IMG/VR virus record: IMGVR_UViG_3300031902_000927 | Direction: 5' to 3' (one strand) | DNA length: 64,000 nucleotides | From: a virus | Taxonomy: Duplodnaviria > Heunggongvirae > Uroviricota > Caudoviricetes | Shown here: one piece after another, positions 7,548 through 64,000 of the stretch | How positions within the stretch are numbered: the stretch's first letter is position 1 | How the letters are laid out: every line of letters begins with the position of its first letter | Notes under the pieces: model-generated | The model's database searches: none | The model's input: only the letters and a program-made list of their open reading frames with translations | Told to the model about the DNA's origin: nothing | Program-made: the position numbers and the translations under genes

Positions 7548-8045
7548 ATGACGAGAAAAATAATAGCAAAATTTTGGTGTGAGATGTGTCAAAAGACACA
7601 GATAAAGGAATTAGCAATTGATATTGAAGAAAATAATTTTCCTTATGAAATGGGTTGGTTTGAGCTAAATTCATTTAATATGGTAGCTCCAAAGCGTTCT
7701 GGTACACCTGTTGAGATTGAATTTTCAAATAAGGATTTTTGCAGCAGAGATTGCGCTATTAATTATATTGAACAAGCACTACTACAATCTGAAACAAAAG
7801 TTCAAGAACCAAAAGCAGTTCCAACTGAACCTATTCCAACAATTCCACAAAGAGCAGAGATTTTAAGGCCAGAGCAACCACAAAAACCAGAACAAAAGCT
7901 TGGCGCGATGGGACACCCTTTATCTGAATCTTATGATAATTATACAGGTAAACCATACGACACAGAAGAGCTTGATTCTGTTCCAGAGTTAGGACCAAAA
8001 AAAACAGAAGAACCTAAGAAGAGATTTGGATTTTTTAAGAGATGA
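7548..8045 (+). CDS. hypothetical protein with N-terminal zinc ribbon
   Basis: CEMCQ...CSRDC; GAGGAGG SD; Pro-rich middle. Confidence 0.4.
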   Translation: MTRKIIAKFWCEMCQKTQIKELAIDIEENNFPYEMGWFELNSFNMVAPKRSGTPVEIEFSNKDFCSRDCAINYIEQALLQSETKVQEPKAVPTEPIPTIPQRAEILRPEQPQKPEQKLGAMGHPLSESYDNYTGKPYDTEELDSVPELGPKKTEEPKKRFGFFKR

Positions 8046-8497
8046 AGCCTTGGATTTACAAAGGTAAAGAATATACAAAAGCAGATGCGGAAATAGAAGC
8101 ATTTGTTTATTTAATTGTTGGTCCAGAAAAAACTTATATAGGAAAAAAGAACTTTTGGCATACGTTAAAAAGACCTCCAAAAAAAGGAAATAAGAATAAA
8201 AGACACGAAATAAAGGAAACAGAATGGCAATCTTATTGTGGTTCAAGTGAAGCATTATTAGAGGATATAAAAAAATTTGGAGAAGATAAATTTCATAGAG
8301 AAATATTGATTTTATGCAGCAAGAAATGTATTGCTTCTTATTTTGAATTATATTTTCAAATGCAAGAGAATGTTTTATTTGACACTTTTTCTTATAATAA
8401 TATTATTAATATACGACTTAACGGAAACATATTTCTTAATCATAAAGATGAATGTCGTAGAATTCTTAAAGAGCTTGAAGCTAAGAACAAATTTTAG
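8042..8497 (+). CDS. possible GIY-YIG-like nuclease domain protein
   Basis: FVYLIVGPEKTYIGKK resembles GIY-(9-11)-YIG, with downstream R/E; weak. Confidence 0.3.
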   Translation: MKPWIYKGKEYTKADAEIEAFVYLIVGPEKTYIGKKNFWHTLKRPPKKGNKNKRHEIKETEWQSYCGSSEALLEDIKKFGEDKFHREILILCSKKCIASYFELYFQMQENVLFDTFSYNNIINIRLNGNIFLNHKDECRRILKELEAKNKF

Positions 8498-9759: not shown

Positions 9760-10233
9760 ATGAAAATCAATCAAAAACAACACATTACAAAGAAAGGTGT
9801 AGTCAAGAGAAATCCTGGTAAAGTTAATTCGTATTTAGAATTACAAAATAAACATAAGAAAGATATTAGTAATTTTCCAATGATATTTGCTTTTAGTGAA
9901 GAGCAGCTTAAAGAAGGATTAAAAAAGCTCGGTGTTACAAAAGATAAAGTTGTTTCAGTTTATGGTGGAGCAATTATCAGAGCTACTGATAAAGATAAAT
10001 ATTTAGCAATGAATATTAGACACGATAGAGAGCACAAAGAAATGATGAATGATAAAAATTATGTCTATAATATGTTTAAATATGAATTAGCAAATCACGA
10101 ATACAGTTATACTTTAGATGATACTGATACTTTAAGGAGTTTAGGTCTAACAAAGGAGCAAGTTAATAATAATCTATTGTTGAGAGAACAGTTAGAAAAA
10201 GCAAAACATATAACAATTAAAAATGAAAGATGA
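9760..10233 (+). CDS. MKIN-tag family protein A (conserved 19-aa N-terminus, unique C-terminal body)
   Basis: MKINQKQHITKKGVVKRNP; 5' nucleotide module shared with 5 paralogs. Confidence 0.6.
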   Translation: MKINQKQHITKKGVVKRNPGKVNSYLELQNKHKKDISNFPMIFAFSEEQLKEGLKKLGVTKDKVVSVYGGAIIRATDKDKYLAMNIRHDREHKEMMNDKNYVYNMFKYELANHEYSYTLDDTDTLRSLGLTKEQVNNNLLLREQLEKAKHITIKNER

Positions 10234-34994: not shown

Positions 34995-35238
34995 TTCGAA
35001 AACTATTGAATCATTATATATTATATCTTTGGAAAATTTATTAGTTATCACATTTCTTATTGTATCGATTGTTTATCATATAATATATGGAATTATATTT
35101 TTATCTATTTTCTTTGTATTATTTAATCTTTTAGCATATGTATCTGTTATCAGAGATTTAGATAAATATAATTTTCAAGAATGGAAAGCAAGAAATATTT
35201 ATTTGATTGATTGGAAGAATGTCAAGGAGAAGAAATGA
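34978..35238 (+). CDS. membrane protein
   Basis: 2 TM. Confidence 0.4.
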   Translation: MKKIINSKTIESLYIISLENLLVITFLIVSIVYHIIYGIIFLSIFFVLFNLLAYVSVIRDLDKYNFQEWKARNIYLIDWKNVKEKK

Positions 35239-35855
35239 AACTAACAATAGGAGATTTATCCGAAGCCTTAGCAAGATTGAAGAAAAAGAATGGATATATG
35301 TATAATCCTTCTGAAAATGAAATACGAGAAGAAGCTATCTTATACGTAGGAGAACAGAATGGTTGGTTGATTGGATTTTTTGAAGGGCAAGTAAGTTTCA
35401 GCGTGAATATTTCCTTGACAAGTACAAAGAATAAAAGATATGTATTTTTCAAGCCAAATATAATTATATCTAATTCTGATGAGCATCAATTGAAATTTAT
35501 TGTAGATGTTTTACAATTAAAAACAAATATTACTAAAAAGAAGAAGAGAGATTCTTCTCACAATGATTGTCATACACTTAATATACAAGACCTTTCAGAT
35601 ATTTGTAATGTAATTGATAAGCTCTCAAATTGTGATTTTGTTTCACAAATAAAAAAAGAAAAGTTCCAGAGATTTGTTGATTGCTGCGCTTATATAACTA
35701 GGAACAACCTTGCTTCTAATACGGAATGGAAGGAGTCTTTTGTTGAAGCTCTTGATAAAAAGTTAAAGATTAATGATTCGCGTTCTAACATTGCTTCTCA
35801 AAGATATAGTAAAGAGGTCTGGGTAAACAAGATAAAGGACCATTTAGATTCTTGA
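35235..35855 (+). CDS. degenerate LAGLIDADG-like homing endonuclease/maturase-like protein
   Basis: GWLIGFFEGQVSFSVNISLTS...RYVFFKPNIIISNSDEHQLKFIVDVL parallels I-CreI LAGFVDGDGSIIAQIKPNQSYKFKHQLSLTF, but the catalytic Asp position is Gln. Confidence 0.35.
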   Translation: MKLTIGDLSEALARLKKKNGYMYNPSENEIREEAILYVGEQNGWLIGFFEGQVSFSVNISLTSTKNKRYVFFKPNIIISNSDEHQLKFIVDVLQLKTNITKKKKRDSSHNDCHTLNIQDLSDICNVIDKLSNCDFVSQIKKEKFQRFVDCCAYITRNNLASNTEWKESFVEALDKKLKINDSRSNIASQRYSKEVWVNKIKDHLDS

Positions 35856-53068: not shown

Positions 53069-53599
53069 ATGGGGATAAATAAAATGAATAAAAAGGGAAT
53101 AGAATTATCAATTAATGTTATAATAATTGCTGCATTAGGATTATTAATTGTAGCAATTCTTGCTGTATTGATAATAAATGGTAATAATGAAAATAAATTA
53201 AGAAATAATAATCAAACAACAATAAATTTATCTTCTGAAAATACCGAAACAACTATAAAATTTACATCAGAGAATCCAGATGTTCTACAAGAAAATGATA
53301 CCAATTGCTGCAATCCTTGGAATGAAAATTCTAGTTGTGAAGAAAATACATCAATATGTAGTGGTATTATTGTTGATGAACCAAAATGGGAATGGAGTAT
53401 AATAAAACCAAATATATCTATTGGAAATAGTTTCACGTTCTCTAGTAATGGTAGTAAGTATCATTTAATTGTAACTAGCACTGAAAATTATACTAATTAC
53501 ACCATTACTATTGATAATAATTATTTTAAAACAGTACCTTGTAATTATTCTACAGAAAATATGGATAATGAAAATTACACGTGTTATATGGAGAGATAA
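53069..53599 (+). CDS. secreted Cys/Asn-rich protein with prepilin-like (class III-like) N-terminus
   Basis: MNKKG|IELSINVIIIAALGLLIVAILAVLI. Confidence 0.4.
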   Translation: MGINKMNKKGIELSINVIIIAALGLLIVAILAVLIINGNNENKLRNNNQTTINLSSENTETTIKFTSENPDVLQENDTNCCNPWNENSSCEENTSICSGIIVDEPKWEWSIIKPNISIGNSFTFSSNGSKYHLIVTSTENYTNYTITIDNNYFKTVPCNYSTENMDNENYTCYMER

Positions 53600-53820
53600 A
53601 AATGAGTGAAACAATAGAAAAGAAAAAAGTCAATTATTTAAATTCTTGGAGATTTTGGTTTATGCAGTAATAATGATAATTTTAGTTATGATTGGATATT
53701 TTATAAATTATGATAAAATTAGTATTGTAAAATCATTAATAGTAACACTTAGTTTACTTATTGCTTTATCTTTAGGAGTCCTATTAGAAAAGTGGTCTAT
53801 TAAATATAAATGGTAATAAA

Positions 53821-53955
53821 ATGAAAGAACGATGGCTACCAATCAAAGGATATGAAGGTTCTTATGAAATATCTGAATTTAATATTTCCATTAGTTCAGT
53901 TTGTAAAATAAAATCAAAAAGTATATGGAAACACATCACGAAGGTTTTGAAATGA
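53821..53955 (+). pseudogene. NUMOD4-like N-terminal fragment of a homing endonuclease
   Basis: MKERWLPIKGYEGSYEIS matches NUMOD4; ORF ends after 44 aa. Confidence 0.3.
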
Positions 53956-54194
53956 GTATCGCAGGAAAAATATTTTCATTTATTATGGTAGGATTTATCA
54001 TAATACTATTAATTGGTATAATATTTTCTTCTTGTGAATTAGAAGACGATACTTGTTATTATCATCAATACGTTTATAGTAAAGGTGGCGGCTACTCTTA
54101 CGATAAAGTTGTAAAATGTTCCGACCCAAACGTTACAGGCCATAAGAAAATGTGTATTTCTACACATTATTTCTGGAGTGATTGGTTTAGATGA
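53952..54194 (+). CDS. small membrane protein with Cys
   Basis: ATGA overlap; TM IFSFIMVGFIIILLIGIIF. Confidence 0.35.
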   Translation: MSIAGKIFSFIMVGFIIILLIGIIFSSCELEDDTCYYHQYVYSKGGGYSYDKVVKCSDPNVTGHKKMCISTHYFWSDWFR

Positions 54195-54601
54195 AAAATA
54201 CAATAAATTATATTTGGATAATATTTATTTTTATGATGTTTTCTATTGTATTAATTAGTGGATGTGCTAAATCACCTTGTATGGATGTAAGTCATTTGTT
54301 ATCAGAAGGATATGAAAATAATGGAATAGACTCAAATGGCTGTCAATTAATTAAAAAGACTATAACAACAAATTCCTCCGAATTATATTATAATTTATCA
54401 GATATTGTTATGACTAAAGGTGTTTTAAATTCAACATTAATAACTTATTCAAAATTAAATATTTCAAATTTGATGTATGAAGGCCAACACGTTCAATGGG
54501 TTTATCAAAATAGAATAAATGTTGTTGAAGGAATTGAAAAAATAATTCCTTGTATTATATTAGAAAATAATACAAGATTATGTCAAGAGGATTTACCGTG
54601 A
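54191..54601 (+). CDS. lipoprotein sharing N-terminal module with 17506..19011
   Basis: Lipobox VLISGC; CMDVSHLLSEGYENNGIDSNGCQL vs CIDVSTYLSQGYSSAGTDGSGCPL. Confidence 0.45.
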   Translation: MKNTINYIWIIFIFMMFSIVLISGCAKSPCMDVSHLLSEGYENNGIDSNGCQLIKKTITTNSSELYYNLSDIVMTKGVLNSTLITYSKLNISNLMYEGQHVQWVYQNRINVVEGIEKIIPCIILENNTRLCQEDLP

Positions 54602-55032
54602 ATAAAGAACTAAAATTAAAGCCAAACGAATTAGCATTATTAAATGAAAATTATAGCACTTACGAGACAGTACCAGGTTTCATACTCAAAAAACCAAAAG
54701 ATAAAGTAATCTTCATTAAAAAAGAATTAATCAAGAAATGGTTCGAAGCTAATCAAGGGAGAAAAAGAGCTTTACCTTTAAATCAAATTGCAGGAAATCT
54801 CGGTTTTGAAAAATATGGAAATTCAGTTGAATTTAGATTCCTTGTTGCTTCATTAGTTGTTGATGATTTATACCCTGTAATTAGTTGCTCTGAAGGTTAT
54901 TATAAAGCAAGTTGTCTAAGTGACATAACAAATAACATTCACACCGAAGAATGTAGAGTTAAAGGAATTCAGAGAAGAATTGATGCCCTGGAGAAAATTA
55001 GAGCTTGGGCAGGTAAAATTGGGATGAAATAA
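54580..55032 (+). CDS. hypothetical protein
   Basis: 150 aa. Confidence 0.4.
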   Translation: MSRGFTVNKELKLKPNELALLNENYSTYETVPGFILKKPKDKVIFIKKELIKKWFEANQGRKRALPLNQIAGNLGFEKYGNSVEFRFLVASLVVDDLYPVISCSEGYYKASCLSDITNNIHTEECRVKGIQRRIDALEKIRAWAGKIGMK

Positions 55033-55364
55033 TGAAAAATAAATACAATTATGCAATACTACAAGGAGATTTATCAACTATAAAATTATCAAATAAATAT
55101 GATAATAGACCTTCAACTGATTTAGTTTTTGAAAATTATAAATTGACAAAAACCAAAATCTCTGGAAAAATATTTGATTATAAATTTGCAATGCACTCTG
55201 AAGATATAGAATTATCTAAAGTAGATGAAAAAGAAATAATTAATAAAAAATTCTTAATTTGGAAATGGAAAACTTATAGAAAGGGATGGCTACTATTAAA
55301 AGAAAGAAAGCTAATGAAAATTGAAAATCCAAAAGGGTTCATTTTGATTGAAGGTGATTTATGA
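55032..55364 (+). CDS. hypothetical protein
   Basis: 110 aa. Confidence 0.4.
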   Translation: MKNKYNYAILQGDLSTIKLSNKYDNRPSTDLVFENYKLTKTKISGKIFDYKFAMHSEDIELSKVDEKEIINKKFLIWKWKTYRKGWLLLKERKLMKIENPKGFILIEGDL

Positions 55365-55966
55365 AAATTGTAAAAAATACTTGTAAAAATTGTGGGTATT
55401 CAGAAACCTTTACAAAAAAAGAACTTGCAATCAAATATTTTTTAGGATTAGTTAAAGAAATATTCTTTGTTCTAGGTATATTATTTATTGTTTTAATCAT
55501 ACTTATAGGTCCTTCTATCTTTTTAGATAATTTTGGTTCGGCAATAATGATGAAAAGTATGGAAAATAATGTTGGAAAAAATGAATTAAGAACCCTTGCA
55601 ATCAATTGGACCGAAGGAACTTGTTCAGATAAAACTTTATGTTATGCTGAAAAGATATTCAATCATACGAAAAATATTCCCTATGTACCTGCTAGTAAAT
55701 TTGAATTAGTATCTTCAAATTTATCAGAGAGTTTTAAGGGAAATGATTGTAAGAATACGGCGATTTTATATACGGCGTTAATGCGTAGCGTAGGGCAAGA
55801 TACACAAGTCATATGTTCTGTAAAATATGCACATTGTGTAAGTAAAGTTAATATTGATTCAACTAATTATTTAATAATCGATTTAACAGGGCCTAAAGCA
55901 TATTTAATGAATAATACTCAACAACCTTGGACATATTTTAACGAAGGTGTTGAAATCTGGAATTAG
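55361..55966 (+). CDS. membrane-anchored transglutaminase-like cysteine protease domain protein
   Basis: N-terminal TM; GNDCKNTAILYTALMRSVGQ (Cys), YAHCVSKV (His), LIIDLTGP (Asp). Confidence 0.45.
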   Translation: MKIVKNTCKNCGYSETFTKKELAIKYFLGLVKEIFFVLGILFIVLIILIGPSIFLDNFGSAIMMKSMENNVGKNELRTLAINWTEGTCSDKTLCYAEKIFNHTKNIPYVPASKFELVSSNLSESFKGNDCKNTAILYTALMRSVGQDTQVICSVKYAHCVSKVNIDSTNYLIIDLTGPKAYLMNNTQQPWTYFNEGVEIWN

Positions 55967-56345
55967 TGGTAAGGTGGTAAATATGGAAAAAAATAAAAAA
56001 TTAAAAAAGATTAATTGTTGGGCAGTTGCATCGTGCGTATTACTCGTAAGTTCAGTAATATTCTTGATAATGTTTATACAAAAAAATAATGAATTAAATG
56101 AATTTAAACTAGCACAAGTTCATTTTGATATGGATAGTTATATAGCAAATCAATTTGTTAATGGAAAAATAACATACGATTTATATGCTAGATATGAACA
56201 CGATAAATATTACAATGGTTCTGTTGCTCTATTTGGAATTGCCGCAGTTGTAGCTGCTTTAGGAATATTAATTCACGGAATATCTTTAGTTAATATAGAT
56301 AATTCTCATCACAACAAAAAAGAAAATGAGGATTTTCTAAAATGA
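55947..56345 (+). CDS. membrane protein
   Basis: 2 TM. Confidence 0.4.
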   Translation: MLKSGISGKVVNMEKNKKLKKINCWAVASCVLLVSSVIFLIMFIQKNNELNEFKLAQVHFDMDSYIANQFVNGKITYDLYARYEHDKYYNGSVALFGIAAVVAALGILIHGISLVNIDNSHHNKKENEDFLK

Positions 56346-56725
56346 ATAGAAAAGGGTATGGTGAAATACAATTCTTTATCGCTGCAATAGTAGTAATTCC
56401 TTTTATTATATTTATGTTTACAATTACTGGAATTACAAAAATAACCATTGAACAACCTTATCATACAGAATATACAAAGTGTGTGCAAGAAAAACAAAAT
56501 ATAAATGATAAATTAATCTATTGTCAAGATGTAAAAGGTATAAATAACAATAATCCTTTTAGTCCTTTATTCTATATTTTGACAATTCTATTATTTATGG
56601 GTGGAATAGCATTATTTGTATTCGGTGCTATTAAGAAAAATAAATTAGATGCACTAGAAATAGAAATTGGAAAAAGAAGTTATGAAATAACTAAAAGAGA
56701 AGAAGAAGTAATTAAAAAGAAGTAA
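56342..56725 (+). CDS. membrane protein
   Basis: 2 TM. Confidence 0.4.
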   Translation: MNRKGYGEIQFFIAAIVVIPFIIFMFTITGITKITIEQPYHTEYTKCVQEKQNINDKLIYCQDVKGINNNNPFSPLFYILTILLFMGGIALFVFGAIKKNKLDALEIEIGKRSYEITKREEEVIKKK

Positions 56726-56794
56726 AAGTAAATAAAACAATGAATGAAGTCGCGAATGAAATTAGTGTATTAAATCGACTTAAAGAGAAAAAAA

Positions 56795-57715
56795 ATGGTA
56801 AGAAAAAAAACAAATAAACAAGTTAGTCTTGAGGATGACGAAATGAAAACAAACGAAAGTAAAAAAGCACAAGGTATGTGGATATTATTTGGAGCAATAG
56901 TTTTTATCGGATTTATCGTAATGATGTTAGGATTCGATACCGTAGAACCTAGCCATATGGGTGTCAAGGTAAATTTTGGTAATATACAAGGTTCTATGAT
57001 GCCAGGAACTCAATGGACAGGTGTCTTTACCCACGTAGAACAATACGATATGAGAATTAGAAAAGATGTAATTGAACTAAAATGCTTTAAAGATGAAACA
57101 ACTAAAATATTAGATTGTTCAAATGCAGCAGCAACCAAACAAGGACAAGCAGTTTATACGACTATAAATGTAAATTATAGAATTAAAAACAACGATGTTG
57201 TAACAGAATTATATAAAAATGTTGGAACTGATACAGAAATAGATGATAAATTAAACATAAAAGCAATCATAATGGAAGGTTTCAAACAAACAACTGTAAA
57301 ATATGATTGGATTGGTATATTAGAAAATAGAGAACAAGTAAAACTTGAAGCAATAGCAAATATAAAAACTAATTTCCCAAAAGATTATCTTGAAATTCAA
57401 GATGTAGTAATCACTAACATCGGATTTAGCCCAGAATTCCAATCTGAATTAGAAGCTAAACAAATTGCTGAACAAACAGGACTTAAAGAAAAGAATAATC
57501 TTGAAGTTGTAAAAAATCAACAAGCACAAGAGATTGAAAAATACAAAGCAGAAGCAGAAAAAATGAGATTACAGAAGAGTGAAATTACTGCTTTACTTGT
57601 ACAACAACAATGGATTGCTAAATGGGACGGTCATACACCTATGTATATGATAACATCACAAGACCAAGCAAATTACTTGTTGCAATTACCTGGTGTACAA
57701 ACTACAACTAAGTAA
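56795..57715 (+). CDS. SPFH/band-7 (stomatin-prohibitin) family membrane protein
   Basis: N-terminal TM then VEPSHMGVKVNFGNIQGSMMPGTQWTGVFTHVEQYDMRI; C-terminal coiled coil. Confidence 0.55.
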   Translation: MVRKKTNKQVSLEDDEMKTNESKKAQGMWILFGAIVFIGFIVMMLGFDTVEPSHMGVKVNFGNIQGSMMPGTQWTGVFTHVEQYDMRIRKDVIELKCFKDETTKILDCSNAAATKQGQAVYTTINVNYRIKNNDVVTELYKNVGTDTEIDDKLNIKAIIMEGFKQTTVKYDWIGILENREQVKLEAIANIKTNFPKDYLEIQDVVITNIGFSPEFQSELEAKQIAEQTGLKEKNNLEVVKNQQAQEIEKYKAEAEKMRLQKSEITALLVQQQWIAKWDGHTPMYMITSQDQANYLLQLPGVQTTTK

Positions 57716-58567: not shown

Positions 58568-58778
58568 AATAAACTATCATTCTATTCAACATTGTATCGA
58601 CCAAAGATTTGAAGATTTATCAAGTTATACCAATACTTCTTTAAATGAAATATTCGAATATTATGACAAACAATTAAATTTTTCTGAAACCATATTATTA
58701 GACTATTATAGACATAAATCTAAAATTATGGTAAATGCTTATGTAAATACAATTAAAAAATACTACAAACCGATTTAA
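58560..58778 (+). CDS. hypothetical protein (last + strand gene)
   Basis: 72 aa. Confidence 0.35.
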   Translation: MNKINYHSIQHCIDQRFEDLSSYTNTSLNEIFEYYDKQLNFSETILLDYYRHKSKIMVNAYVNTIKKYYKPI

Positions 58779-59122
58779 TTCTTTTTTTGAAGTATTTGAA
58801 TAGACTTTGCTAAAGATAATCTAGTGTTATCTATCTTGTTCCCACATTCTTCAAGCTTCCTAGCTGCTTCTCCTGTTGCAGTCTTAATATCTGATGTCTC
58901 TTCATATTCCTTAACCAAAGCCCAAATTTTATCACTTATCGCATCCATTTCTTGCTCAATTTTCTTGATTTCTTCTTCTAAAACCATTCTTTTCACTCTC
59001 CGCTTCTGTTCAAATATATAGTTAAAAAACTCTTTCATAGTGAGATGTTCCCATATTTTACCTGGCAATTGGGTGTGAGGAGGACGAATAGTGGGTTCAT
59101 CCCTTAGATGGATTTTACCCAA
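58775..59122 (-). CDS. hypothetical coiled-coil protein
   Basis: First gene of convergent minus-strand block. Confidence 0.4.
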   Translation of the reverse strand: MGKIHLRDEPTIRPPHTQLPGKIWEHLTMKEFFNYIFEQKRRVKRMVLEEEIKKIEQEMDAISDKIWALVKEYEETSDIKTATGEAARKLEECGNKIDNTRLSLAKSIQILQKKN

Positions 59123-59134
59123 TTACCATCTGGT

Positions 59135-59518
59135 TTATGGGAACACCGTGAACGACAAAGTACCTTTCTCTACCTGACCTGACAAGTATCTAACTTCATA
59201 ATCGACATAGTATGTACCTCTTTCTACCGATTCTGGTACATTAAAATGAACTTTTTCCTCAATATATTCTCCTTTATAGGTTGTAAACATCTTATAAGTC
59301 TGTCCATTTGAAAATTTTACCCATTCAAGTGTTGAAGGAGTAAGTACATTTCTTTTCAAATTAATATAACCTGCATCATTTCTTTCTGGAGTTAATACAA
59401 TCTTTTTATCAAAATTTCCACTCTTAAAAATTAAATTAGTTTGTGTTATAACTAAAAATACTGACAATAATACTCCAAAAATCATCATAACAACTATAAA
59501 CCAAGGTATCTGCTTCAT
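59135..59518 (-). CDS. N-terminally anchored membrane protein
   Basis: TM WFIVVMMIFGVLLSVFLVI. Confidence 0.45.
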   Translation of the reverse strand: MKQIPWFIVVMMIFGVLLSVFLVITQTNLIFKSGNFDKKIVLTPERNDAGYINLKRNVLTPSTLEWVKFSNGQTYKMFTTYKGEYIEEKVHFNVPESVERGTYYVDYEVRYLSGQVEKGTLSFTVFP

Positions 59519-60084
59519 CTTTTTTTAACCCTCAAATATGTTATAAGTAATATAATCATTAAAATAAAAATAATTATTGCAATCATAGGCCATCTTGAAT
59601 TTGGATTGGTTAAAACTTTACTCGTAGAGTTTACTATTCCATTTTGAACATTTATTTTTAAATTTAATATCTTAGAAGTATTTTGTGATTTTACTTCAAT
59701 AATTCCTCTATAAATTCCAATATCTGCATCATTTGGAATCTTTACATAATAATAAAATACATAATTATTATCGACAATATATAATCCTTCAGCAGCTTTT
59801 TCTGATATGTATTTGTTTTCATCTAAAGATACCCATTCCATATTAGATTTTAATGTAGTTCCAGGTACATAATTTTCTATAATAAAAGAACCTTTAATTA
59901 AATCTCCCTGTTTTACATACAAATCATCTTCATAAGTATCGAGAGAATAGGCTAAAGCCGCGTATGTAGTGATGGCTAATAAGAAAACAACAATTATTAT
60001 AGTCCAAACTAATCTACTTCTTCTCTTTCTTTTATAATCCAAATCATTATCTATCGTAGGAATAGCCACCAAATTAAAAAACAC
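59515..60084 (-). CDS. bitopic membrane protein (N- and C-terminal TM)
   Basis: ATGA-coupled; LVWTIIIVVFLLAITTYAALA and MIAIIIFILMIILLITYL. Confidence 0.45.
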   Translation of the reverse strand: MFFNLVAIPTIDNDLDYKRKRRSRLVWTIIIVVFLLAITTYAALAYSLDTYEDDLYVKQGDLIKGSFIIENYVPGTTLKSNMEWVSLDENKYISEKAAEGLYIVDNNYVFYYYVKIPNDADIGIYRGIIEVKSQNTSKILNLKINVQNGIVNSTSKVLTNPNSRWPMIAIIIFILMIILLITYLRVKKR

Positions 60085-60671
60085 CCCACTATAATTACAA
60101 TTATTGATAAAAAATATGTTAAATTAAAAACTTTTGATTCAACACTTCCATCTGCATTTGTTTTAACATCATATTCAAAAGACATAAAGCTTTTTTGATA
60201 CCACTCATTTCTTTGAATTCTATTTGTAACTGTATCTGAAAATTCAGTTTGTCCTTCTTTGTATAAAACAATTGTAGGTTTTATTTCATTAGTTGATACT
60301 GAAATGTCGTCTATATAATAATCTCCATTTAACTTTAAATATTGTTTTTTACTATCTTTCGTTATCTTAAAAACTACATCTTGTGGAGCAGATGTTATTA
60401 ATCCGATTGTATCATTTCCATAAAAAGTCACATCTAATTCTCCTCCTTTAACAATAAATACAAATTTTTGATTACTATTTAATAAAATTCCATCCGATAC
60501 AATTTTAAAAGAATCTACTGATACGCCTTTAATGAAATGATAATTAATACTCTTATCAGAAAAGGTTGTATTTTCCGTAAAATCTAAAGCGTTTGTTAAA
60601 GGTAAAATTAACAACACCATTATTCCCACTAATAATGTAAATTTTTTCATTCTTATATCAAAACAGTTCAA
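60051..60671 (-). CDS. secreted protein
   Basis: Signal peptide MKKFTLLVGIMVLLILPLTNA. Confidence 0.45.
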   Translation of the reverse strand: MNCFDIRMKKFTLLVGIMVLLILPLTNALDFTENTTFSDKSINYHFIKGVSVDSFKIVSDGILLNSNQKFVFIVKGGELDVTFYGNDTIGLITSAPQDVVFKITKDSKKQYLKLNGDYYIDDISVSTNEIKPTIVLYKEGQTEFSDTVTNRIQRNEWYQKSFMSFEYDVKTNADGSVESKVFNLTYFLSIIVIIVGCFLIWWLFLR

Positions 60672-63600
60672 TCCTTTTTATTATTTTTGTTTTTTCCACT
60701 AAACATAATCGAAATCAATATTACTAATAAGACAATTAATATTACAAAAAATGTAATACCAGACAGTAATAAGTTGTTCCTAATAAATACTGGTAATCTT
60801 TGCTGCACTTTATCCCACCAAGTTAAATTAGTGACCTCAAATGTGTGATAAACTGTAATGGTTGGTTGAACTACAGTCTCATACTGCGCCTTAAATTGAA
60901 ATTGACCTGCATCAGTACCTAAAGGAAGAGTAACAGACCTCTCTATCTGTGTCGTTCCTACTGGAATTTCTAAAAATTGCTCCTTAGTTACACCATATTT
61001 GTTCCCTGTTGAATCTTCAAGCCAATAAGTCAGAACTGTGTCCTGGTCTGGTACATCCCCTGTGTTTTTAATCAAGATGTCAGCGCGAATTGGTTCTGTT
61101 GAAGTCCAAGTATCATATAACGGTGTCACAATAACATCATAAAGCCCTGCCTTTGGCCCATTATCGTTCAAATGAACAACATTTAAGTCTCCAACATAAT
61201 CTAATGGGAAACTTTGCCAAAAACCTCTACCATCAAGCATTTCGACCCTTACCCAAACATTGTAGTGTTGTTCTACCTTGAATTGTGGTGAAAGGCCATC
61301 TGAAGATAAGCTTAATTCGTGACTTCCAACTCCATTTATTGTAGTTTGAAACTCTTTAGTTAAATCTCCAGAATTTTTATTGTAGAAATAATAATTTAAT
61401 CTAAAATTGTCTCCTTCCAATGGTAATCTTAATGTATCAATCCCAACCTTGAACATAGCAGTCTCTAATATGGAAGGAGTATTAATCGACAAATTATTGT
61501 AATAATAACTTGCATTTTGATTTTGGAAATAAGATACATCAGCTAAAGCAATAGAAATTAAGTCGCTTTGATTTTGTAACATTTGTTGAATTGATGATAA
61601 TTGTGAAAGGTAAGAATATACTGTTCCATTTATAATTATAGATAAATTAGATAAAGAATCAATCTTACTATTAATAATCATAGTCATATTTTTAATCTCA
61701 TAATTAGTAGAATTAATTGTAAAAATTATAGAATGTATATCCGTTAATGTTTGATTCATTTCTTCTACAGAATTTCCAAAATAATTCATTGAATTGTTCA
61801 AACTAAATAACATTCCTTCTACATTTGATAAATTAATATTTTGACTTACAGATAAATTCATTGTACCATTAGCTATGTTATTTATTGTGGCGTTCATTTG
61901 TAATAAAGTAGCATATATGTTATCAATCTTAGAATTAACGGAGTTTAAAGTTCCGTTGATTGTTAAAATTTGATTAGATACTCCATTTATAGTTCCATTA
62001 ATACTTATGATATTTGCATCAACAGTAATTATTGCGTTTTGTATTTGATTTACAGTACCATTCATATAATTTAATGTATTTTGAGTAGAAGTAATTGTAT
62101 TATTAATATAAATAAGTGATGTTGCTATTCCTTGAGTTGTATTGTGAACTAAATAAAGTGTATTATTCATATTAACAACATTACCATCTATTGTGTGTAC
62201 AACATTATTTGTATCTAAAATAGTTGAATTCATATTCATTAAAGAAAGTGTAATTCCTGTAACATCTTGCTGCATCAGATATAACGAACCATTTACATTT
62301 ACTAAAAGTGAGTGTATATCATTTACTTTTGTTTGAGTATTTATTATAGTTCCATTCATAGATACTAATGATGCTTCGATACCATCAACTTTACTTTGAA
62401 TATATACAAGCGTTCCATTCATATTTATGAAAGTAGATTGAAGATTATCTAATTTAGTATTTGCTGCAACTAAACTTGAATTAATATCTAATAAAGATAT
62501 TTTAATGCCTGTTACATCATTTTGTATTCCATAAACTGTTCCATTTACATCTAATATAGTAGTTGCTATATTATTTACTTTTGTTTGAACATTAATTAAT
62601 GTAGAATTAATTCCAATTAAATAAGACATTATACTTCCATTTATTTCATCTAATTTATTTAAAACATTCTGATTTGACGTATTTATATTTGATATTGAAT
62701 TTATTATGCTACCATTTATAGATATTATTGTATTTGAAAGACCATTAACACTTCCATTGATAGATATTACTCCAGAATTTACATTTAAAACTCCAGAATA
62801 TATATTATTCGCCGTGTTATTTAACTCAAATAATCCAGATAATAATTGATTATTTACAGAAGATATGTTTTGAACATTTTGATAAATATTACTAACTATA
62901 CCATTAATTTCTACTACGTTAGAATTAATGGTTGTAGTCGTACCATTTATATTGAGAACAACTTGCTCAATTCCATTAATATCTCCTTGAATAGAAACAA
63001 CAGAAGCATTTATTTGATGAGCATAATTATATACTCCATATAAAGTTTGATTCATTTGTTGTAATAAATTGTAAATATCATAAACAGTCCCATTTAATAT
63101 TACAAATTTATTATTTGTGTCATTAACAATATTTTCAATAGATAATAATTTTCCATCAATTGTGTTCAATGTCATATTTAATGAAGATAAATCTACTGTT
63201 GGATAATATGTCAAATTTCTTGTAGGATAATTCCAAACTGCAATGCTTACACTATTACTTATCAAAGAATAATTAGTAACATCATCATAGAATGTTAAAT
63301 TTCTATTAGATTGATTCCATACATAAAATCCAATTAAACTATAATCTGTCATATCTTCTTGACTAGGATAATATGTCAAATTTCTATTTTCCGAATTCCA
63401 AACTGCATTTGATATATCTGTAGCATTTATTGTGTTAGATGTTAATGTTCGATTAAAATGATTCCAAACATTATCTGCTATCAAAGTATAATTAATACTA
63501 ACATCATTTGGATAATATGTTAAATTTCTATTTGTATAACTCCAAACTAAGAAAGCAATATTACTCATATCTGCTCCTGTAAGACTTACGGTTCTATTTG

Positions 63601-64000
63601 AATAATTCCAAATATAAGTAGATAAAGAATCGTAATTAACTTTTTCTGGAATAAAAGATTCATTTAATATTGTAATTGCCGTTGCGCCATCTGCAAGATA
63701 ATCTCCAAAATCACAAGTTTCTTTCGTGGAATAAGAACCCATTGTGGTAAAATTGTACACGTAGATACTTGTTCCATTTCCTGTCTTACTCATATTAGTC
63801 TTAGGCAGTATGACTCCACCTACTGCATCATAAATAATAATGGTAGCATTTGCCGCAGCTCTCAATTGAAAGTTTCTTATACAAGAAGTCGTTATAGTGG
63901 TGGGGTGGTTTGAATATCCTACAATCTCTTCAGCAAATGCTACATTGATACTTAAAATCATTAATATTGCCACTATCCAATACAAATTTTGTTTTTTCAT
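60668..64000 (-). CDS. large repeat-built surface protein (signal peptide, WN..NRNLTYYP repeats, about 25 sequon-headed 21-aa repeats, Ig-like C-terminal domain, C-terminal TM anchor)
   Basis: ATG at 63998-64000; repeats visible in translation; C-terminal LLLSGITFFVILIVLLVILISIMF + KNKNNKKD. Confidence 0.6.
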   Translation of the reverse strand: MKKQNLYWIVAILMILSINVAFAEEIVGYSNHPTTITTSCIRNFQLRAAANATIIIYDAVGGVILPKTNMSKTGNGTSIYVYNFTTMGSYSTKETCDFGDYLADGATAITILNESFIPEKVNYDSLSTYIWNYSNRTVSLTGADMSNIAFLVWSYTNRNLTYYPNDVSINYTLIADNVWNHFNRTLTSNTINATDISNAVWNSENRNLTYYPSQEDMTDYSLIGFYVWNQSNRNLTFYDDVTNYSLISNSVSIAVWNYPTRNLTYYPTVDLSSLNMTLNTIDGKLLSIENIVNDTNNKFVILNGTVYDIYNLLQQMNQTLYGVYNYAHQINASVVSIQGDINGIEQVVLNINGTTTTINSNVVEINGIVSNIYQNVQNISSVNNQLLSGLFELNNTANNIYSGVLNVNSGVISINGSVNGLSNTIISINGSIINSISNINTSNQNVLNKLDEINGSIMSYLIGINSTLINVQTKVNNIATTILDVNGTVYGIQNDVTGIKISLLDINSSLVAANTKLDNLQSTFINMNGTLVYIQSKVDGIEASLVSMNGTIINTQTKVNDIHSLLVNVNGSLYLMQQDVTGITLSLMNMNSTILDTNNVVHTIDGNVVNMNNTLYLVHNTTQGIATSLIYINNTITSTQNTLNYMNGTVNQIQNAIITVDANIISINGTINGVSNQILTINGTLNSVNSKIDNIYATLLQMNATINNIANGTMNLSVSQNINLSNVEGMLFSLNNSMNYFGNSVEEMNQTLTDIHSIIFTINSTNYEIKNMTMIINSKIDSLSNLSIIINGTVYSYLSQLSSIQQMLQNQSDLISIALADVSYFQNQNASYYYNNLSINTPSILETAMFKVGIDTLRLPLEGDNFRLNYYFYNKNSGDLTKEFQTTINGVGSHELSLSSDGLSPQFKVEQHYNVWVRVEMLDGRGFWQSFPLDYVGDLNVVHLNDNGPKAGLYDVIVTPLYDTWTSTEPIRADILIKNTGDVPDQDTVLTYWLEDSTGNKYGVTKEQFLEIPVGTTQIERSVTLPLGTDAGQFQFKAQYETVVQPTITVYHTFEVTNLTWWDKVQQRLPVFIRNNLLLSGITFFVILIVLLVILISIMFSGKNKNNKKD

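Follow-up and report, generated by a model that had tools for sequence, protein, structure and literature searches.

A mobile-element gene for a putative membrane-anchored fibre protein with a long heptad-repeat stalk, heptad-phased sequons and a two-sandwich pedestal

The window analysed here is a stretch of 64,000 nucleotides (nt) from the IMG/VR virus record IMGVR_UViG_3300031902_000927, part of a larger mobile genetic element. The gene at its end, on the minus strand, encodes a protein of 1110 amino acids (aa), here called the fibre protein, in which a signal peptide is followed by a small head, six short repeats, a stalk of 76 heptads, two beta-sandwich domains and a single transmembrane (TM) helix. 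On balance, its sequence, the fold model of its C-terminal part and the gene order around it make it probable that the product is an N-glycosylated, oligomeric head-stalk-pedestal fibre, which is anchored in a membrane and would act in adhesion or recognition. An earlier note, made by a model from the letters of the sequence alone, had likened the architecture to a fibre or stalk adhesin, and the head-stalk-anchor layout held on closer analysis.

Layout of the fibre protein

The open reading frame (ORF) is complete and ends with a stop codon at 60668-60670 (-). The positions of its parts, all on the minus strand, are as follows.

60668..64000 (-): fibre gene, complete, 1110 aa (from the ORF list; the ATG is the window's last three bases)
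63932..64000 (-): signal peptide, aa 1-23, MKKQNLYWIVAILMILSINVAFA (read from the sequence; kept in homologue P0001)
63626..63931 (-): distal head domain, aa 24-125, with two Cys and five N-x-S/T sequons
63176..63625 (-): six VWNxxNRNLTYYP repeats, aa 126-275, with starts 22-28 aa apart
61556..63175 (-): stalk, predicted heptad coiled coil, aa 276-815, 76 heptads with about three register shifts
62042..62608 (-): core of the stalk, aa 465-653, nine consecutive 21-residue (three-heptad) units, each headed by N-x-S/T
61175..61501 (-): first beta-sandwich of the pedestal, aa 834-942, modelled by AlphaFold2 with a predicted local distance difference test score (pLDDT) of 84.6
60833..61141 (-): second beta-sandwich of the pedestal, immunoglobulin (Ig)/CARDB-like, aa 954-1056, with the motif NTGDxPDxDTVLTYWLED
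60671..60820 (-): juxtamembrane helix (aa 1061-1074), TM helix (about aa 1077-1101) and Lys-rich tail GKNKNNKKD

Read from the sequence, the N-terminus is MKKQNLYWIVAILMILSINVAFA, then EE, so that the signal peptide reported earlier was found again, as were the six N-terminal VWN..R.LT repeats (starting at aa 130, 152, 178, 200, 227 and 255) and the C-terminal TM helix with its basic tail. The arrangement of juxtamembrane helix, TM helix and Lys-rich tail recurs in all full-length relatives. The distal head, in contrast, is common only to the fibre protein and P0001 among all sequences gathered, and AlphaFold2 modelled it with low confidence (pLDDT <50); a model of aa 24-330 built with 18 repeat-block sequences reached a pLDDT of 46, too poor for a fold search. 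Sequence searches with the whole protein against Pfam, PHROGs and the PDB returned only weak coiled-coil noise, and PHROG 5553 matched the low-complexity stalk (E = 3.8e-11).

The stalk as a probable heptad coiled coil

Over aa 261-830 the residue autocorrelation had a value of 0.14 for lag 7 and values of about 0.19-0.22 for lags 14, 21, 28 and 42, on a background of 0.06-0.10. An 11-residue (undecad) periodicity was not found in the stalk, where the value at lag 11 (0.108) lay at background level. The earlier note had counted about 25 consecutive 21-residue repeats; with autocorrelation peaks at multiples of 7, the basic unit is instead the heptad. Assignment with local registers gave 76 heptads (n = 76 for each position), in which position a is hydrophobic in 84% (L25, V21, I15) and position d in 91% (I40, V11, M9), Asn occupies position e in 33 of the 76, position f is taken by N, S or G and position g by T, S or K. 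The register is kept over about 430 residues with 7-8 of every 8 core positions filled, and the shifts near aa 425-455 and near aa 712 resemble classical stutters. The stalk consists of N (18%), I (14%), S (10%), L (10%), T (9%) and G (6%) in the main; Arg is absent, and Lys and Glu are rare.

We infer that the stalk is an alpha-helical coiled coil because the 3-4 spacing of its core is strict, because its weak matches in Pfam and the PDB (DUF1664, Laminin_II, heptad repeat 1 (HR1) of coronavirus S2 and a chemoreceptor) are all alpha-helical coiled coils, and because the sole model that reaches into the stalk, itself of low confidence, puts a helix at aa 309-329 (pLDDT ~55). If alpha-helical throughout, the stalk would be about 80 nm long (540 residues x 0.1485 nm). 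As beta-branched Ile dominates position d, general coiled-coil rules make a parallel trimer or tetramer the most likely state of assembly.

That the stalk is not helical at all, being a beta-solenoid (named as an option in the earlier note) or another beta-rich repeat with a period of 7, 14 or 21, seems to us quite improbable. Such a fold would suit the high content of Asn, Gly, Ser, Thr, Ile and Val and the near absence of charge, as well as the recurrent turn-like N-G motifs, and AlphaFold2 is unconfident where its model reaches the stalk. However, beta strands would alternate with a period of 2, whereas the 3-4 hydrophobic spacing runs through all 76 heptads with shifts of the stutter type, each of the weak database matches is helical, and the low-confidence model, where it reaches the stalk, assigns a helix. 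Moreover, relatives such as P0017 carry charged, conventional coiled-coil segments at the same position.

Sequons in the heptad register

The fibre protein has 55 N-x-S/T sites in total. Within the stalk 35 sequons were observed, compared with 19.4 +/- 3.6 in composition-preserving shuffles, and in 24 of the 35 the Asn stands at heptad position e. Neighbouring stalk sequons usually stand 21 aa (11 cases) or 14 aa (9 cases) apart, and the 21-aa spacing occurs seven times running in the core of aa 465-653. The sequon-headed 21-residue repeats described earlier thus exist, as nine consecutive units rather than about 25.

The combination of Asn at e with S or T at g was observed 20 times against 14.0 expected from the position-specific composition (p = 0.0016). 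In the relatives P0018 and P0050 the linkage is absolute, all Asn residues at e being part of full sequons (26/26 and 29/29, respectively; p ~1e-13). The middle residue of the sequon is varied (G, S, T, A, Y, D, L and others), and the forward N-x-S/T motif is commoner than the reversed one. Because Asn at e and S/T at g are linked, without exception in P0018 and P0050, while the residue between them is free to vary, the unit kept appears to be N-x-S/T and not Asn alone, as selection for N-glycosylation predicts. The suggestion that the sequons are under selection gains from their phase-locking to position e, both here and in relatives, and the stalk is predicted from them to be N-glycosylated. 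If this is true, the heptad register of a coiled coil would itself specify the sites of N-glycosylation, and a simple rule would suffice to build a rod that has no charge, is coated with sugar and probably resists proteases. In a literature search that was not exhaustive, we found no description of heptad-locked sequons in archaeal surface proteins.

The pedestal and its family

For aa 815-1075, AlphaFold2 with an input of 11 family sequences gave a model of two beta-sandwiches and the juxtamembrane helix, at a mean pLDDT of 84.6. An Ig/CARDB-like, beta-rich domain had been proposed for the C-terminal region, and the model indeed has the beta-sandwich fold, in two copies; fold searches gave generic Ig-like matches only. 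Pfam CARDB did not match the fibre protein at E <= 1, and no Pfam model covers the pedestal.

An exhaustive search of 1.84 billion representatives found pedestal relatives in 98 representative proteins. A word-indexed search with the C-terminal 261 aa had missed even P0001 at 77% identity, which reflects a limit of the index and is not evidence of absence. A metagenome scan returned 7 loci, one of them long, and scans of IMG/VR with the fibre protein and with the pedestal profile yielded no relatives. In full-length relatives (534-2546 aa) the pedestal is always C-terminal and is followed by the TM helix and the basic tail, whereas the regions N-terminal of it are unrelated to one another. By these comparisons the pedestal constitutes a sequence family of its own.

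What stands on the pedestal differs from protein to protein. The closest homologue, P0001, is 76% identical and has the head, the repeats and the pedestal in common with the fibre protein; it has 38 aa between the conserved flanks where the fibre protein has 462, a block difference of 424 aa. Sequon-rich coiled coils of roughly 700-1000 aa are present in P0017, P0018 and P0050, and the stalk coiled coil is absent from P0020, P0021, P0024 and the protein of locus L027. Some relatives thus have no stalk at all, and the longest stalks measure about 900 aa. Given a constant pedestal, exchangeable heads and stalk lengths between 0 and about 130 nm, reach and specificity are predicted to evolve independently of each other. 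Together with the VWN repeat described below, the two-sandwich membrane pedestal makes two families that are outside Pfam and widespread in metagenomes.

Reproducibility across assemblies and repeats at the DNA level

The fibre protein was found identical on 13 contigs. The DNA of the window matches the Joint Genome Institute (JGI) contig Ga0302321_100000047 without a difference, and three further assemblies agree with it at 99.98% or more; for the fibre DNA, the four assemblies compared, from JGI and the European Nucleotide Archive and from four samples, agree at 99.98-100%. Since it is identical in at least four independent assemblies, the 1110-aa ORF is real and not an assembly artefact.

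A mis-assembly with collapsed or expanded repeats is the first explanation that a long, low-complexity, periodic region invites, and the earlier note had named it as the finding that would overturn the architecture. Tandem Repeats Finder detected no array in the fibre gene within 58-64 kb. Base autocorrelation over 61.5-63.1 kb was 0.39, 0.43 and 0.44 for lags of 21, 42 and 63, respectively, compared with 0.344 in a codon-shuffled control (z = 4-8). With repeats that are only about 44% identical at a lag of 63 nt and form no tandem array, assemblers have unique paths through the region, and the same protein on 13 contigs and the same DNA in four samples leave the artefact with next to no probability. 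Mis-assembly was rejected on these three grounds: low repeat identity, no tandem array and one sequence in four assemblies.

The periodicity of about 63 bp noted earlier over 61.5-63.1 kb is thus present above the shuffles, but it is weak. It is real, mirrors the protein repeat and belongs to units too diverged for slippage; near-identical head-to-tail units, as in a contingency-type array, are not found in the fibre gene (identity 0.44 at lag 63). The proposal that the array is a site of length variation has to be divided accordingly: in the sampled population the sequence is invariant and offers no slippage-prone array, whereas between related elements the length does vary.

A true DNA tandem repeat was observed in the gene of the adjoining secreted 1886-aa protein, with units of about 75 nt (25 aa, NSSIVQEIQDRINNDTSINNRVTTI) at 8055-8500 of L002, a locus of the same element. 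One MEGAHIT contig breaks exactly at this repeat. The 1886-aa gene, and not the 1110-aa gene, is the candidate for variation in repeat number.

The element that carries the gene

Contigs of 105,567, 105,708 and 105,645 bp came from different assemblies (loci of the element: L002, L005 and L025), and their ends do not coincide. Compared with the JGI contig, the MEGAHIT contig has exactly 141 bp more, a length equal to its k-mer size, and its first base falls within a gene that is uninterrupted in other assemblies. Because of the differing ends, the excess of one k-mer and the start within a continuous gene, the element genome is probably circular or circularly permuted, with a size of about 105.6 kb. 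Its GC content is 28%.

The scan of gene content covered 93 proteins over about 71 kb and gave 19 Pfam families and 47 PHROG families, of which 25 are listed. About 80% of the element proteins are without a Pfam match. The element encodes a family B polymerase, a helicase, an exonuclease, an ATP-dependent ligase, ParB-N, DnaJ, SPFH and homing endonucleases. An HK97-fold capsid, a portal and a large terminase were not found in the 19 Pfam or the 25 listed of the 47 PHROG families of these 93 proteins, and the element has no transfer RNA or Rfam matches, no ribosomal RNA and no cellular core genes. From 1 to 58.8 kb the genes are on the plus strand; at 58775 the minus-strand block begins, and the sign of the GC skew switches near 58 kb, in agreement with the convergent arrangement described in the earlier note; the minus-strand block placed there at 58775-64000 is present, but it runs at least 10 kb past the end of the window. 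Shine-Dalgarno-like GGAG/GAGG motifs precede about half of the genes, a feature that does not tell archaea from bacteria.

The fibre gene is encoded by the element and is not flanking host DNA, since the contig is circularly permuted between assemblies and the gene order around the fibre gene recurs in five mobile-element-like loci. The contrary view, that the block is host chromosomal DNA and the gene, for example, that of a host S-layer stalk, draws on the combination of signal peptide, coiled coil and C-terminal TM helix, which recalls SlaB and tetrabrachion (PMC6911244, PMC5744192), and on the VWN motifs in giant ORFs of DPANN bins. We consider it very improbable: besides the permutation of the roughly 105.6-kb contig and the lack of transfer RNA, ribosomal RNA and cellular core genes, the module stands beside the same kind of small ORFs and replication genes in five loci, and tblastn found only the VWN repeats in common, and only with L020 and L009. 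The earlier note had held that a match to a known host S-layer gene would point to flanking host DNA; no such match was found. The host S-layer gene was rejected for the circular permutation, the absence of cellular core genes and the recurrence of the module in five loci.

Two side observations concern other parts of the window. Homing-endonuclease genes are scattered in the replication region (8042-8497, 35211-35855 and others) and are of SegE-like GIY-YIG, LAGLIDADG and HNH types. Furthermore, six small plus-strand ORFs (108-194 aa) at window positions 9760, 10241, 16016, 21853, 23381 and 24380 open with the same 19 residues, MKINxKQHITxxGVxKRNP, and are otherwise different; most have GAGG/GGAG upstream, and they may be a paralogous family or carry a common N-terminal tag.

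VWN repeats and a possible host

In 18 aligned blocks of the VWN repeat the residues W, R, L and T are invariant, and no Pfam family matches the repeat. Modelling hints at one short helix and one strand in each. The proteins P0002-P0016 contain 3-39 copies, behind a different, conserved N-terminal region. When one genome per species was screened with a degenerate DNA pattern for WNxxxRNLTYY, 18 contigs matched, 11 of them in DPANN bins (Woesearchaeota, Nanoarchaeota and Pacearchaeota), and 9 of these 11 matches fall within ORFs that the end of the locus truncates and that have lengths of about 960 to >2,600 aa. In a tblastn comparison of the window proteins with the VWN-bearing bin contigs, L020 and L009 were the only ones to match, and only through the VWN repeats. 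DPANN archaea are plausibly the hosts of the element. The surface module would then mark a family of large, almost wholly unannotated mobile elements that is plausibly DPANN-linked, and it bears on how DPANN archaea attach to partner cells and on which viruses and plasmids they carry.

One VWN protein, P0006, is located on L034 (contig Ga0069718_10152710), which is 75 kb long and mobile-element-like. Near it are encoded an integrase, a LamG protein of 3494 aa and a protein of 932 aa that matches collagen faintly, along with dozens of small ORFs. Several families of elements may thus typically carry VWN proteins.

Proposed function

In the model that we propose, the fibre protein would be exported and its Sec signal peptide cleaved off, and the chain would be held by its one C-terminal TM helix, with the short Lys-rich tail in the cytoplasm. 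Two tandem Ig-like beta-sandwiches would sit on the membrane as a pedestal, from which the 76-heptad coiled coil of about 540 residues would rise by about 80 nm, with the six VWN repeats and the small head at its tip. Roughly one heptad in every two or three contains an N-x-S/T whose Asn is at e; if an archaeal oligosaccharyltransferase uses these sequons, each chain would bear a stripe of N-glycans with one every 2-3 nm, and the rod would be uncharged and coated with sugar. The fibre could then extend from the membrane of the element-carrying cell and act at long range in adhesion or recognition, with specificity in the head and reach in the stalk. Adhesion or recognition is the most likely function, being the most economical one, and it is favoured because the anchor is conserved while head and reach vary. 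The membrane may be that of the cell or a virion envelope.

Several points weigh against this proposal. The adhesion function is without support from homology, and the head matches only P0001. The helicity of the stalk is touched only by a low-confidence model (pLDDT ~55, aa 309-329), and its N/I/S/T/G-rich, Arg-free composition is odd for a coiled coil and compatible with beta-rich folds as well. At position e, which borders the core, bulky glycans could clash in a trimer or tetramer, and the N-x-S/T pattern could instead provide hydrogen bonding between helices. The host assignment uses a shared repeat motif and low GC only, and one match with 12 VWN repeats lies in a 30%-GC contig binned as Cloacimonadota. 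Finally, there may be capsid genes in the roughly 24 kb of the element outside the DNA read.

The last point bears on a different account of the same protein, in which it belongs to the particle of an archaeal virus that is enveloped or contains a membrane. As a spike or fibre held in the viral envelope by its TM helix, it would serve attachment, and its long heptad region might also bring about class-I-like fusion. Signal peptide, heptad region and C-terminal TM helix are what such a spike would have, and three conserved small membrane proteins adjoin the fibre gene. Phage-like replication genes and homing endonucleases, with no HK97-type capsid, portal or terminase in 93 proteins, would suit an unconventional virion, and integrases are present in related contigs. 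In addition, the best PDB sequence matches, though weak, are HR1 constructs of coronavirus S2 (E = 0.002), and a Lactobacillus phage tail fibre matches at 24% identity. Both of these matches, however, are composition-driven similarities between coiled coils. No fusion peptide and no second, fold-back heptad region were seen, a two-domain Ig pedestal stands between stalk and membrane, and the stalks of homologues range from none to about 900 aa, which fusion machines would not tolerate. Neither the protein nor the pedestal profile found a relative in IMG/VR. Altogether we regard the virion spike as rather unlikely, and the cell-borne adhesion or recognition fibre as the reading to be carried forward.

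On a wider scale, the module might be the attachment or entry apparatus of an undescribed lineage of large (84-106 kb) DPANN elements without recognisable capsid genes, either enveloped viruses or plasmid-like, an idea that we put forward as an unlikely one. If the elements are enveloped viruses, the proteins of the surface module would be their spikes. If they are plasmid-like, the element would refit a tiny episymbiotic host with new tethers and so change its possible partner cells.

Comparison with known fibres

The fibre protein resembles trimeric autotransporter adhesins, class I fusion proteins, phage tail fibres, tetrabrachion and SlaB in its proposed working, but it lacks a defining feature of most of these groups and is probably a member of none. 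Trimeric autotransporter adhesins (YadA, BadA, SadA) have a head-stalk-anchor organization with Asn/Ile-rich, polar coiled-coil stalks of variable length and a conserved anchor. The fibre protein has the same head-stalk-anchor logic, an Asn/Ile-rich polar stalk, variable length and a constant anchor. The adhesins are proteins of diderm bacteria and are held by a C-terminal outer-membrane beta-barrel; the fibre protein, in contrast, has a single TM helix with a basic tail and no beta-barrel, and no YadA-type Pfam domains were found in it. To our knowledge, trimeric autotransporter adhesins are without N-glycosylation at repeat-phased sequons.

With class I fusion proteins such as coronavirus S2 the fibre protein shares a signal peptide, N/Q/S-rich heptads, sequons and a C-terminal TM helix. 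Yet the E-values are marginal (0.002 or worse), the heptad region is one and continuous, neither a fusion peptide nor an HR1/HR2 pair was found in the fibre protein, and the stalk length of its relatives is not conserved. Phage tail fibres are likewise long coiled-coil fibres with variable distal parts, and one of them is 24% identical to the fibre stalk over 271 aa. They have, however, no signal peptide or membrane anchor, and their matches to the fibre protein are confined to the low-complexity stalk.

Tetrabrachion, the S-layer stalk glycoprotein of Staphylothermus marinus, has a 70-nm stalk of four chains (PMC5744192). Both proteins combine a very long coiled-coil stalk, predicted at about 80 nm in the fibre protein, with beta-rich distal parts, and the fibre protein, too, is predicted to be an archaeal glycoprotein. 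The stalk of tetrabrachion is a right-handed tetramer with 11-residue repeats, whereas that of the fibre protein is built of heptads and has no 11-residue signal. Sequence similarity between the two was not found. The fibre protein further differs from tetrabrachion in that its gene belongs to a mobile element, that an Ig pedestal separates its stalk from the membrane and that its sequons are locked to its heptads. SlaB, which anchors the S-layer of Sulfolobales in the membrane, forms a trimer with heavy glycosylation (PMC6911244). It shares with the fibre protein the Sec signal peptide, the beta-sandwich domains, the coiled coil and the single C-terminal TM helix. The domain order is reversed, however: the sandwiches of SlaB lie away from the membrane, which its coiled coil of about 100 aa adjoins (PMC6911244), whereas in the fibre protein the sandwiches are proximal and the coiled coil of 540 aa is distal. 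No homology of the fibre protein to SlaB was found in Pfam or the PDB, and unlike SlaB the fibre protein has no SlaA partner.

The surface module and neighbouring genes

The fibre gene is part of a surface module with a recurrent gene order: in five related loci one or more giant secreted or anchored proteins are followed by the fibre protein and then by three small membrane proteins. The minus-strand ORFs that follow the fibre gene in the window are the following.

60051..60650 (-): partner 1, about 199 aa, with a signal peptide, a beta-rich ectodomain and a C-terminal TM helix
59515..60084 (-): partner 2, 189 aa, with an N-terminal TM segment, a probably Ig-like middle (by eye), a C-terminal TM segment and the tail KKR
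59135..59518 (-): partner 3, 127 aa, with an N-terminal TM segment or signal-anchor and a probably Ig-like domain (by eye)
58775..59122 (-): last ORF of the block, listed with 115 aa (87 aa in the JGI gene call), small, charged and helical-looking

Partner 1 is 66% identical to its counterpart in L001 and 28-33% identical to those in L024 and L027, which stand at the same position. Partners 2 and 3 are also conserved in L001 (64% and 72%, respectively), L024 and L027, and the three partners keep their order in these loci; in L035 genes of similar size are found at those positions. The last ORF lacks a hydrophobic segment, has no counterpart at this position in L001, L024 or L027 and matches only weakly elsewhere in L001; it probably lies outside the surface module. 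Of the four further membrane or secreted proteins announced for this region by the earlier note, three therefore have hydrophobic segments that suit a signal peptide or a TM helix, and the fourth, at 58775..59122, has none.

Beyond the end of the window the same strand encodes the secreted 1886-aa protein (L002 4306-9966) and a 2449-aa Ig-repeat protein that ends in a TM helix and a basic tail. The latter (L002 1-4306) was seen to have many Ig/fibronectin-like repeats and a C-terminal TM helix with the tail NRKK, and by eye the stretch just before this helix resembles the middle of the 189-aa protein at 59515-60084.

The gap of 34 nt on the 5' side of the fibre ATG (L002 9966-10000) is without a Shine-Dalgarno motif, and TTATAAAA is centred about 27 nt upstream of this ATG. 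The spacing of TTATAAAA could suit an archaeal TATA box and a leaderless transcript, or could be due to chance in DNA with 28% GC.

Across the convergent junction, the last 5 kb of the plus-strand block (53069-57715) likewise encodes many membrane proteins. Among its genes are one for an SPFH/Band 7 protein at 56795-57715 (+) and an ORF at 54191-54601 (+) with a lipobox-like LISGC after a signal sequence. At 55361-55966 (+) it encodes a 201-aa membrane protein with a weak transglutaminase-core match, which is conserved across the junction in L001 (64.5% identity) and L024 (35%). Its function may lie with the surface module, where it could serve, for instance, processing or cross-linking.

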